Positions 11,060 through 13,865 of a stretch of 14,365 nucleotides of DNA are shown here, piece by piece (position 1 is the first letter of the stretch; every line of letters starts with the position of its first letter). The notes beneath the pieces are model-generated. The model did not search any database and was not told the DNA's origin. It saw nothing but the letters and a program-made list of their open reading frames with translations. The translations under genes and the position numbers were made by a program. Source of the stretch: a virus (Duplodnaviria > Heunggongvirae > Uroviricota > Caudoviricetes); IMG/VR virus record IMGVR_UViG_3300037420_000666, one strand, 5' to 3'.

Positions 11060-11590
11060 TTAGTTTCGTCCGATCCAGCGGATACCAAGCCAGGCCAAGC
11101 CCGAAAGCAATGGAAGCGACAAGTTCAGGGCCAGGAACCCGTTCTCGGTAAGGTTGTAGTCCCATCTCCAGATGACACCCCAGAGCTGCACAGCAACTAC
11201 CCACAGAATGCTGGCAACAATCCAGGCGCGTGTCCGTCGCCTGCACTGCTCGCGGATCGCCTTCAAGCGCACTTCTGGCTTGGCAGCCTCAAGCACCGAC
11301 AGCAGCTTGGCGTGCCCGCCTCCATCTGCATATCGAAGGTAAGCGTCGTACTTCTTGCGCCGCTCCGGGTCTCCGAGGGTGTGCAAGGCCTGCTGAGTGA
11401 GCGCATACCGGGCGGGCGCGTCCTTGCTGCCACAGCCCGTTTTTGGGTGGTAAGTGGCGCTGAAAAAGCTGTGCGCCATTTCTATGTAGTCTTGCGTGGC
11501 ATTCGGCTGTAAATCAAGAACTCGATAGAAATCAACGATTCCATCTGCCCTTTTGAACTCGTCTAATACACGCTGCGCATCCTCGTCCAT
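11060..11590 (-). CDS. Membrane-anchored J-domain (DnaJ-like) protein with HPK in place of HPD
   Basis: 176 aa. Residues about 20-85 align along the whole J-domain pattern (DFYRVLDLQPNATQDYIEMAHSFFSATYHPKTG...ALHTLGDPERRKKYDAYL versus DnaJ DYYEILGV...YHPDRN...AYEVLTDSQKRAAYDQYG). The tripeptide is HPK (codons CAC CCA AAA, top 11441-11449). Two C-terminal hydrophobic segments (AWIVASILWVVAVQLWGVIW, FLALNLSLPLLSGLAWLGIRWI). Lower GC than the flanks; in the repressor-cargo region. Confidence 0.75.
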   Translation of the reverse strand: MDEDAQRVLDEFKRADGIVDFYRVLDLQPNATQDYIEMAHSFFSATYHPKTGCGSKDAPARYALTQQALHTLGDPERRKKYDAYLRYADGGGHAKLLSVLEAAKPEVRLKAIREQCRRRTRAWIVASILWVVAVQLWGVIWRWDYNLTENGFLALNLSLPLLSGLAWLGIRWIGRN

Positions 11591-11645
11591 ACCGCTCCCT
11601 TGTGATTATATTTAGCGAATTAACCTGAAATCAGTTTCGAATTTC

Positions 11646-11657
11646 TCGAATATTCGA
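11646..11657. promoter_or_regulatory. Perfect 12-bp palindrome TCGAATATTCGA with adjacent TTCGAA, upstream of the J-domain gene
   Basis: Located in the AT-rich 78-bp spacer between the 77-aa ORF and the J-domain gene. A perfect TATAAT (minus strand, top 11605-11610) lies 14 nt upstream of that gene's ATG. Candidate regulator-binding site and internal promoter. Confidence 0.35.
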
Positions 11658-11668
11658 TTGCGAGTGAG

Positions 11669-11902
11669 TCAGCGTATTCGCTGAGCCAATTCATCATCAA
11701 GCGCAGCTAACATCCCGCGAGCAAATGTTGGATTCCGATGGGCTTCGCCGCTGGTATTTACAACGAACCCTCGTTGTTTTGTCATTGCGGCGTATGCGAC
11801 CCCTATCACTTCGCCTCGTTCCGCTCGCTCCAGAAGGTTTCTTAAGTCGGCCACCACGTCGTGTGGGGCCTCCTCCCGAACGAGGCGAAACGGAGGCTTC
11901 AT
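11669..11902 (-). CDS. Hypothetical 77-aa protein coupled to the repressor gene
   Basis: ATG overlaps the repressor stop (ATGA at 11899-11902) and is preceded by AAGGAAA. Sequence MKPPFRLVREEAPHDVVADLRNLLERAERGEVIGVAYAAMTKQRGFVVNTSGEAHRNPTFARGMLAALDDELAQRIR; no family recognised. Lower GC than the flanks. Confidence 0.55.
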   Translation of the reverse strand: MKPPFRLVREEAPHDVVADLRNLLERAERGEVIGVAYAAMTKQRGFVVNTSGEAHRNPTFARGMLAALDDELAQRIR

Positions 11903-12744
11903 GACTTCTTTTCCTTGCCGCTTTCATCGGTACGGATGATCCGCTCCATGCCCGGCATGGGGCGGTCGCTGAAGTACTTACCGCCGGGCGGCTGTTCCTT
12001 CTGAACCGGAACAGCGCGCGCGGTGCGCCCGATCCTTTCCAAGAATCGAGGCAATTCCTCCCGTGGTTTTATTTTTCGTGCCGGCACAGGGTGCGGCACG
12101 TAATAGACCCAAGTTACTTCGGTGGGGCTGAAACTTAAAACTTCCGGCGAGTTATAACTTCCAAATCTCCACCCGCCGCGCCGGCTCAGCAGTCGCTTGA
12201 GCATAGTCGAACCATCGGCCAAGCGCACAAGAACGTCATCCTCAAGATCGGGGTCGCTGCTTGGCTCGACTAGCGCATATTCGTTTGGCATGTATTTGGG
12301 GATCATCGAATCTCCGACGACCCGGCAGACAAACGCGTAATCGTCGCTGCTGAGCACCTCGGCAAATTCGGTGGCCTCCGAAAGCCAGTTGTCATCGAAT
12401 ATCCGCTCCGGCATTCCTCCCTGGCAGGTGCCGCACACGTAGACCGGGCGGACGCTGCGCGCCGGGAGTGTCTGAGGCGGAGCACTCTCTGTCGCAACCA
12501 TGACTGACAGGCCAGCACTGACCGTGCCCGGGTAGGCCGTCAGGCCCCAATGCTCCGGCCCAACCACATTTGCAAACAGAGCCCAGAGCCCCGGCAGCTT
12601 CTCCTTCGAGATGGTTCCGCGGTTCACCCAGTCCTGGATCGTCGGCGGCTTGACCCCGAAATGCTCCGCCAGGGCTTTCTTGGTGATGCCCTTTTTTAGT
12701 CTGGCCGCCTCGATGGCTTGCCCTAGTTCGATCCCGGTAAGCAT
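11899..12744 (-). CDS. CI/LexA-like prophage repressor (N-terminal XRE-type HTH, C-terminal S24 peptidase domain)
   Basis: 281 aa. N-terminal HTH (LGQAIEAARLKKGITKKALAEHFGVKPPTIQDWVNRG) and an S24 autoproteolysis domain with Ser and Lys motifs (VVGDSMIPKYMPNEYALV ... DGSTMLKRL). Carries an unusual ~60-aa C-terminal tail. Divergent from a Cro-like gene; AGGA lies 10 nt upstream of the ATG. Confidence 0.9.
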   Translation of the reverse strand: MLTGIELGQAIEAARLKKGITKKALAEHFGVKPPTIQDWVNRGTISKEKLPGLWALFANVVGPEHWGLTAYPGTVSAGLSVMVATESAPPQTLPARSVRPVYVCGTCQGGMPERIFDDNWLSEATEFAEVLSSDDYAFVCRVVGDSMIPKYMPNEYALVEPSSDPDLEDDVLVRLADGSTMLKRLLSRRGGWRFGSYNSPEVLSFSPTEVTWVYYVPHPVPARKIKPREELPRFLERIGRTARAVPVQKEQPPGGKYFSDRPMPGMERIIRTDESGKEKKS

Positions 12745-12760
12745 CGCCTAATGGTCCTGA

Positions 12761-12813
12761 TAAGGCAGTGAGTAGGCAATTCCTTGCAGAATTGTTAGGC
12801 ATAGCCTTATCAT
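12761..12813. promoter_or_regulatory. OR-like operator/promoter region between the repressor and Cro-like genes
   Basis: Contains TGTTAGGCATAGCCTTA (12793-12809, identical to 10808-10824), an imperfect copy TAGGCAATTCCT (12773-12784) and half-site TAAGGC (12761-12766). Candidate rightward promoter: -35 TTGCAG (12784-12789), -10 TATCAT (12808-13), which places the transcript start at or next to the cro ATG (12820). Confidence 0.5.
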
Positions 12814-12819
12814 GGCGCC

Positions 12820-13119
12820 ATGAACGATCCCATCAACGACCTCGGCGGTCCGACTGCGGTGGCAAAGATGCTGTGCATCAAGGCCCCGTCCGTCGTCCAG
12901 TGGAAAGGCCGCATTCCGGCTGAACGGCGCGTGGACCTGGAGCGCGTCGCCTACCCCAAGTTCTGGGTTGAGCGCGCCGGCGACGACGTGCGCTGGCAGC
13001 GCGTGCCCGATCCCGAGTGGCCGCATCCCGATGGCCGCCCTTGTATCGACGTTGCCGCGATGCGCCCCCCGCTCCCCCAAGCCGCCGCCGCAGCTCCCCA
13101 GGCTGTGGCTGCGAGCTGA
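12820..13119 (+). CDS. Cro/YdaS-like HTH regulator
   Basis: 99 aa. DLGGPTAVAKMLCIKAPSVVQWKGRIPAERRVDLERV matches the YdaS/Cro-type HTH pattern (...QW..rG.iPaeR...iE..). Divergent from the repressor across the operator region. No Shine-Dalgarno upstream, so possibly leaderless. Confidence 0.75.
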   Translation: MNDPINDLGGPTAVAKMLCIKAPSVVQWKGRIPAERRVDLERVAYPKFWVERAGDDVRWQRVPDPEWPHPDGRPCIDVAAMRPPLPQAAAAAPQAVAAS

Positions 13120-13161
13120 CGCGCTCGCCCAGGCCCCACACCAAAAAGCAGGACCGAGAGG

Positions 13162-13416
13162 ATGCAAATGCAACCGGAGGACATGCCGTCCATGAGCTCT
13201 GACCTTTGCGATTTCAGAGGGAAGCTGACAGTCGAGGCCATGGCCATGCTGGAAGGCGAGGCCGCGGTTACCGGCGACGACAAGTCGGTGATCGCCCGCA
13301 GGGTGCTTCACGCCTGGGCCATGAGAAAGATGCATGCCCACAAGATCGCGCAACGCTGGCTTGCCGTCGAGGGACATGCGACGCCCGAACGGGGCGGTTC
13401 GGGGAGCCTGGCGTAA
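13162..13416 (+). CDS. Hypothetical early protein (CII-position)
   Basis: 84 aa, ATG at 13162 preceded by GAGAGGA. Its stop overlaps the next start (TAATG at 13414-13418). No family recognised. Confidence 0.55.
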   Translation: MQMQPEDMPSMSSDLCDFRGKLTVEAMAMLEGEAAVTGDDKSVIARRVLHAWAMRKMHAHKIAQRWLAVEGHATPERGGSGSLA

Positions 13417-13865
13417 TGGCCCGGCCGCGCATTACCCCGGCCTACAAGGCCCGGCGCCTGGAGCGCGAGCGCGCAGCCGAGTACCGCTTCGACGTGGATG
13501 CCTGGACAAAGGCCGCCGCCGAGACGCTGAGCATTCCGGCAGAGCACGTCGGGCTGACGGCCAGCGAGATCGAGGCGCTACCCGTGCCGGCTGCCCGCAG
13601 TGGTGTCCAACTCGTGTGCGCCGGCCCGGGCTGCGAGGAGTGCTTCAGCGCAGTGGCATCGGCGATTCGACAGCCATCTCGTACATGTGGGTCACCGTGC
13701 CCCAGCCCTGCAGCGGGTGAAGCCACTGCGACTCCAGCTGGATCGCGACCGCCGGGCTGTTTGCTCCATCTGGCTCCTCGCGCCACTCCAGTACCGCAAG
13801 AGGCGGCTGACCCGGCTCAAGCAGCAGATCCACGTTGTAGTGGGCCGTTTGGCCCGCGTGGGTGA
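13416..13865 (+). CDS. Hypothetical protein, 3' end uncertain
   Basis: ATG at 13416 is coupled to the previous stop. Codons up to about 13640 show strong G/C at third positions and a protein-like product (MARPRITPAYKARRLERERAAEYRFDVDAWTKAAAETLSIPAEHVGLTASEIEALPVPAA...). Beyond about 13645 third-position GC collapses and the product becomes P/A/G low complexity, so the true C-terminus is probably earlier or a frameshift is present. Confidence 0.35.
   Translation: MARPRITPAYKARRLERERAAEYRFDVDAWTKAAAETLSIPAEHVGLTASEIEALPVPAARSGVQLVCAGPGCEECFSAVASAIRQPSRTCGSPCPSPAAGEATATPAGSRPPGCLLHLAPRATPVPQEAADPAQAADPRCSGPFGPRG

Follow-up and report, generated by a model that had tools for sequence, protein, structure and literature searches.

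The cro-like gene of this high-GC temperate phage begins a few nucleotides after a candidate promoter, and the question raised by the locus is whether its mRNA carries any 5' untranslated region (5' UTR) at all. Leaderless mRNAs are rare in well-studied Proteobacteria, and in phage switches, to our knowledge, they are textbook material only for the lysogeny-side repressor (lambda cI). An earlier note on this DNA had proposed leaderless translation for the cro-like gene. Our analysis of the sequence leads us to consider this quite probable: transcription of the gene would begin at a PR-type promoter under repressor control, with +1 at the A of the cro AUG or within 1-2 nt of it.

The switch locus and the start of the cro-like gene

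The window, by which we mean the whole stretch of 14,365 nucleotides analysed here (IMG/VR record IMGVR_UViG_3300037420_000666, Caudoviricetes), has a G+C content of 68% and is part of the 45-kb metagenomic phage contig JGI Ga0395908_0000467, where genes for RecT, YqaJ and a PAPS reductase are found on the left arm and those for DnaB, the small terminase subunit and the portal on the right arm. The Cro-like gene (12820..13119, +) encodes a protein of 99 aa that matches the Pfam family P22_Cro (PF14549) over residues 5-43 with 34.8 bits, above the gathering threshold of 30.2, and that scores 28.8 against PF15943, just under the cut-off of 30. Divergent from it is the gene of a cI-like repressor (11899..12744, -) of 281 aa with HTH_3 and Peptidase_S24 domains in Pfam, for which the gene call on the 45-kb contig is identical, and 75 bp lie between the two start codons. 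The locus is of the lambdoid CI/Cro switch type: a repressor with HTH and S24 domains stands divergent from a small Cro-like gene in a phage genome. A DNA search of positions 11600-13500 against GenBank phages was uninformative, with only matches of about 70% to the cI genes of two Pseudomonas phages.

Several features surround the repressor gene. The cI-like protein continues for about 80 residues past its S24 domain, the Pfam match ending at residue 199 of 281. An ORF of 77 aa with no Pfam match (11669-11902, -) overlaps cI by 4 nt at its stop, an arrangement suggestive of translational coupling. Also downstream of cI is an ORF of 176 aa (11060-11590, -), whose product has a DnaJ (J) domain at the N-terminus and a hydrophobic C-terminus that probably spans the membrane; it is preceded by TATAAT and the Shine-Dalgarno (SD) sequence AAGGGAG (11591-11615). 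The majority of the window's ORFs clear a GC3 cut-off of 0.72; the DnaJ-domain ORF, cI and ORF 11669-11902 do not, and are moron-like.

No start upstream of ATG 12820 is possible, because an in-frame TAG stands at 12802, and the out-of-frame ATG at 12812 opens an ORF of only three codons. A protein search found 110 homologues of the Cro-like protein. Thirty-five of these were aligned; they have a conserved N-terminal motif, M-S-x-L-I-x-x-L-G-G-P-T-A-V-A, with almost no variation at Met1, G9 and A15. A start farther downstream, at ATG 12868 (Met17), would have a weak GGTGG upstream and a distance of about 48 nt from promoter to start, and Met17 is conserved in the alignment too (…VA[RK]ML…). 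However, residues 1-16 are conserved as protein, and such a start would truncate the HTH because these residues include part of the P22_Cro match; we rejected it on the Pfam match and the alignment, and regard it as extremely improbable. The Pfam match from residue 5, the near-invariant Met1 and the in-frame upstream stop indicate that ATG 12820 is the true start. Several database gene calls that had been extended upstream read P-Y-x-x-x-M, that is, CCN-TAY-NNN followed by 6 nt and ATG, all of it translated, and this gave the first hint of a -10 element at a fixed, conserved distance from the start codon.

The earlier note had also stated that no purine-rich SD precedes this ATG within 15 nt, and the sequence there, CCTTATCATGGCGCC, is indeed without a purine run. 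When the 20 nt upstream were examined, the duplex that the cro start could form with the antiSD had a free energy of -1.5 kcal/mol, the weakest among 20 ORF starts in the window, where many other genes carry GGAG, GAGG or GGAGG upstream. A contrast is found within the same operon: the second rightward gene (13156..13416, +, with its start at 13168) has the canonical SD GAGAGGA (13156-13162) 5 nt upstream of its ATG. The program-made ORF list places the start of this gene at ATG 13162; the SD and the JGI call (L131 10349, equivalent to window position 13168) favour ATG 13168. The first 18 nt of the predicted cro mRNA (AUGAACGAUCCCAUCAAC) are unpaired in the minimum free energy fold.

Promoter anatomy and its conservation in related phages

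Upstream of ATG 12820, on the + strand, we identified a -35 hexamer TTGCAG (12784..12789, 3 of 6 positions shared with TTGACA), an 18-nt spacer, a -10 hexamer TATCAT (12808..12813, 5 of 6 shared with TATAAT) and a GC-rich discriminator of 6 nt, GGCGCC (12814..12819), which contains no SD and has C at -1. TATCAT therefore ends 6 nt 5' of the ATG, as the earlier note had read it, and both its coordinates and its letters were confirmed. A scan for sigma-70 promoter and terminator consensus sequences over positions 12300-13300 gave nothing above thresholds, and it missed the cro promoter because the -35 matches at only 3 of 6 positions. With 6 nt and 18 nt, the spacing itself falls in the range by which leaderless genes are recognised (6-8 nt between -10 and start codon, PMC6028130, and 16-19 nt between -35 and -10), though the -35 of the window is weak. 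The window has one TANNNT-N6-ATG where 0.60 would be expected, so that the coincidence at a single locus is not significant alone; TTGNNN-N18-TANNNT occurs twice against 0.63 expected, and the complete TTGNNN-N18-TANNNT-N6-ATG, a pattern chosen post hoc, once against 0.01 expected, a count that 1 of 200 shuffles reached. Taken alone, the promoter in the window is weak evidence, and the case for more than chance rests on its positional conservation in relatives.

To this comparison we brought 130 related loci, comprising 36 from IMG/VR, 80 from metagenomes and 14 from species genomes (Rubrivivax, Pelomonas, Pseudaquabacterium, Aquariibacter, other Burkholderiales and one Lysobacterales MAG). 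Met1 was anchored in each locus with a family HMM, and 95 non-redundant upstream regions with an HMM score of at least 75 were kept; 199 ORFs of the same loci served as controls, crudely called as the first ATG of ORFs of at least 100 aa with high GC3. TANNNT ends 6, 7 or 8 nt before Met1 in 42, 20 and 15 of the 95 relatives, respectively, over a background of about one at each other position of the 70 upstream nucleotides. Together these make up 77 of 95 (81%), against 9 of 199 control ORFs (5%; Fisher p = 1.7e-42, to be read in the light of the fact that the relatives are not phylogenetically independent). TTGNNN has its own peak 29-31 nt from the start (24, 26 and 17 of the 95), which corresponds to spacers of 17-18 nt, and C occupies position -1 in 75% of relatives versus 42% of controls, giving with the A of the ATG the pyrimidine/purine context typical of start sites. 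The start codon is ATG in 91 of the 95, under a start-picking rule that favoured ATG. A core SD at proper spacing was found in none of the relatives (0/95) versus 47/199 controls (p = 2e-9), and the mean antiSD duplex is -1.8 versus -4.1 kcal/mol (p = 6e-10).

This conservation of geometry does not appear to be identity by descent, as judged from the variety of the sequences: the 95 relatives use 26 kinds of -10 hexamer and 68 kinds of discriminator, and the geometry is retained after clustering of the last 40 nt, in 60 of 76 clusters at 70% identity and in 33 of 48 at 60%. The five closest relatives present the same picture on a small scale. They conserve the operator-like and -10 block TTAGGC-NNN-GCCTTAT-NAT, while the 5-6 nt that separate it from the ATG vary freely (GGCGCC, GTGGGC, GCGCGC, TGCCGC, GGGGC); a conserved block followed by a free discriminator points to a constraint on spacing and not to a ribosome-binding site. 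Their -35 is TTGACG or TTGACA and lies 2 nt further downstream than the TTGCAG of the window. Across the family, G and C prevail at positions -6 to -2 without an excess of purines, and each of these positions has 69-84% G/C. Such a composition is reminiscent of stringently controlled promoters, which have GC-rich discriminators, but the GC background of 68% could account for it equally well.

What the sequences show directly is the promoter anatomy, a start without an SD, which codon is the true start and, over about 95 diverged relatives, a conserved placement of -35, -10 and ATG. The earlier proposal of a leaderless cro-like gene thus finds support in sequence, from the -10 at 6-8 nt in 77/95, the -35 TTG that matches it, the C-A junction and the 0/95 with a core SD. 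Since an AUG that abuts its promoter has been kept in about 100 diverged phages of one bacterial order, the layout is selected and not accidental. The coding sequences of the family also start in an A-rich, G-poor and accessible stretch: nucleotides 4-18 contain 32% A and 16% G (controls, 18% and 28%) and have an unpaired probability of 0.645 versus 0.55 (p = 1e-5), a comparison of A-richness and accessibility that is confounded by the conserved N-terminal peptide.

It is important to consider how exactly the first transcribed nucleotide can be placed. The choice of transcription start at sigma-70 promoters commonly shifts by 1-2 nt. Transcription could accordingly begin 1-4 nt before the AUG, for example within G12814-C12819, with SD-independent translation of an mRNA bearing a very short leader. 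The spacing of 7 or 8 nt in 35 of the 95 relatives, and of 8 nt in the Variovorax phage VarioGold, speaks for this, and in those 35 a leader of 1-2 nt is just as likely as none. Against it, the spacing in the window is exactly the modal 6 nt (42/95), initiation favours the context C(-1)/A(+1), and the other discriminator nucleotides are G or C only. We hold such a short leader to be unlikely here, and it would still count as leaderless under the operational definition of a 5' UTR of less than 5 nt (PMC7563307).

Candidate operators and the divergent cI side

The promoter is covered by repeats that may serve as operators. Candidate operator O1, the imperfect palindrome TTAGGC-ATA-GCCTTA (12795..12809, +), is situated in the spacer and overlaps the -10, and its block is the one kept in the five closest relatives. 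Candidate O2, TAGGCAATTCCTT (12773..12785, +), is a direct repeat of O1 (repeat family D1) located 23 bp upstream and abutting the -35; its block (T)AGGCAATTC is invariant in the same five relatives. The window therefore has two candidate sites of the TAGGCA type 23 bp apart. Perfect palindromes with arms of at least 5 nt cluster in the family at -16 to -18 from the ATG, that is, in the spacer and running into the -10, with smaller clusters near -40 and -64, a layout that would be expected of OR1/OR2/OR3-type operators over a real promoter.

Other symmetries were identified in the same region. An inverted repeat CAATTC-N6-GAATTG (12778-12795) is centred on the -35 hexamer, and a 9-nt inverted repeat, TGATAAGGC / GCCTTATCA (12758-12766 / 12804-12812, 37 nt apart), brackets the promoter; they could serve as further sites for a regulator or act as a looping pair. 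A palindrome of 14 bp without mismatch, TCATGGCGCCATGA (12810-12823), covers the last letters of the -10 together with the discriminator and the cro ATG. We rejected it as a protein site: L003 is the one relative that repeats it (with CATGCGCGCATG at that position), the other relatives are without it, and it probably arises as a side effect of CAT-N6-ATG when the spacer is GC-rich.

The candidate operators bear on a further explanation, in which cro is expressed from a leadered mRNA that starts at a promoter farther upstream, in or beyond the cI start region, and is translated independently of an SD (S1-mediated, or by way of an unstructured leader), TATCAT being incidental or part of an operator. 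The scan called no sigma-70 promoter in 12300-13300, so that the promoter's position is a prediction, and the TA of the -10 overlaps the operator-like palindromes; because the TANNNT signal shares part of its sequence with them, some of its conservation could be operator-driven. An operator alone, however, leaves the T at -7, the TTG 17-18 nt upstream and the C-A junction unexplained. No other positionally conserved TTG or TANNNT peak was found in the 70 nt upstream of the 95 relatives, and just 75 bp separate the two start codons. A promoter farther upstream thus seems improbable to us, and we retain the reading in which transcription starts at or next to the A of the cro AUG.

From these elements we infer the exact transcription start, the binding of the repressor to the palindromes and the mechanism of translation, which together would operate as follows. 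A sigma-70-type early rightward promoter, TTGCAG-18 nt-TATCAT, would lie within the 75-bp cI/cro gap. In the lysogen, the S24-type repressor would occupy both O1 (TTAGGCATAGCCTTA), in the spacer and overlapping the -10, and O2, the second copy 23 bp upstream, and so block the promoter. Upon cleavage of the repressor by RecA-stimulated autocleavage, sigma-70 RNA polymerase would initiate at A12820, the predicted +1, and the cro transcript would begin with 5'-pppAUGAACGAUCCC. Because this mRNA would have neither a 5' UTR nor an SD, Cro would be made by the leaderless route, in which a 70S ribosome, or a 30S subunit with IF2 and fMet-tRNA, binds the 5'-terminal AUG; the downstream genes of the transcript would use ordinary SDs. 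Since read-through RNA also lacks an SD, Cro would be translatable only from RNA started exactly at PR.

The same analysis was extended to the opposite arm of the switch. Among the 59 relatives that have a divergent ORF of at least 100 aa located 55-95 nt away, TANNNT stands 6-8 nt before the ATG of the cI-like gene in 27, and at exactly 6 nt in 21, which suggests that in those relatives the cI-like gene may be leaderless too, as in PY54 and lambda. The hexamer on this side is usually TAGGCT, in a TAGGCT-NN-CCTA palindrome that abuts the ATG (e.g., L002, L004, L016, L096, L099, L101 and L111). In the window, the region upstream of cI (12745-12760) reads GACCAT-TAGGCG-ATG, where GACCAT is a poor -10. 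A broader proposal, which we offer tentatively, is that this clade of Burkholderiales temperate phages might have a switch devoid of 5' UTRs, with cro leaderless in about 80% of members and cI, at a distance of about 70 bp, in about half (27/59), the latter from a TAGGCT that doubles as operator half-site, so that both arms would depend on SD-independent initiation. If both arms were leaderless, they could be tuned jointly by the state of ribosomes and initiation factors (e.g., in the SOS response or under stress), beside their control by transcription.

Comparison with known switches

The earlier note had implied that leaderless translation of a lytic-side regulator would be new, which was overstated. 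In the Yersinia telomere phage PY54, RACE identified single mRNA species for cI and for cro, each beginning with AUG, and a strong -10 immediately precedes cro (PMC4488713); this is the sole experimentally shown leaderless cro in the literature that we searched. The immB region of PY54 resembles the window in its divergent cI and cro genes and its short intergenic region. PY54 differs in its gammaproteobacterial host and its linear plasmid prophage, and it was absent from our sequence hits. The evidence also differs in kind: it is experimental in PY54, where both genes are leaderless, whereas it is comparative for the window, where the geometry is clear on the cro side only.

In lambda, the cI mRNA made from PRM starts at the A of its AUG and has no SD, which is the classic case of a leaderless switch gene (PMC8630535, PMC4488713). 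PRM and the window promoter have in common a regulator of the lysis-lysogeny decision, the lack of an SD and operators, in the window candidate ones, that overlap the promoter. The side of the switch is the opposite one: the leaderless gene belongs to lysogeny in lambda, and the probably leaderless gene of the window to the lytic side. The cro mRNA of lambda, transcribed from PR, has a leader and an SD.

Mapped transcription starts are also available for paaR2/ydaS of E. coli O157:H7 and racR/ydaS of the Rac prophage, both from cryptic prophages (PMC8630535, PMC9638921). As in the window, a Cro-like gene of the YdaS/P22_Cro type is divergent from a cI-like repressor gene across a short gap (97 bp in paaR2/ydaS). 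The leaderless transcript of these systems is on the repressor side (paaR2; racR P3), and ydaS is not reported as leaderless in these two sources.

Genome-wide surveys of hosts place the signal in a wider frame. The published signature by which group C of GeneMarkS-2 recognises leaderless genes combines a Pribnow box 6-8 nt ahead of the start codon with the lack of an RBS (PMC6028130), and in Cupriavidus CH34, a member of the Burkholderiales, leaderless transcripts account for 4.67% of primary transcription start sites and are enriched in transcription regulators (PMC7563307). These surveys cover host genomes as a whole, whereas our study follows one phage gene family, in which the layout is kept in about 80% of members.

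A cultured phage with this layout was also identified. The Variovorax phage VarioGold (OP296522.1; L134, 1407-1446), which is mitomycin-inducible and carried by Variovorax sp. ZS18.2.2, has TTGACG-17 nt-TAGATT-8 nt-ATG and no SD in front of a distant Cro homologue (39% identity) that was the sole match in our protein search of phages, and a divergent S24 cI lies 76 bp away. The published description of VarioGold makes no mention of an SD-less cro layout (PMC9658991). VarioGold thus offers a cultured system for the study of leaderless translation in Betaproteobacteria, and the conserved spacing gives annotators of high-GC phage genomes a simple guide to cro starts and PR promoters. Known concepts are left unchanged by a leaderless cro; what is new, on the evidence of these sequences, is the clade-wide conservation of a leaderless-type cro layout, of a kind already known from PY54 and from lambda cI.
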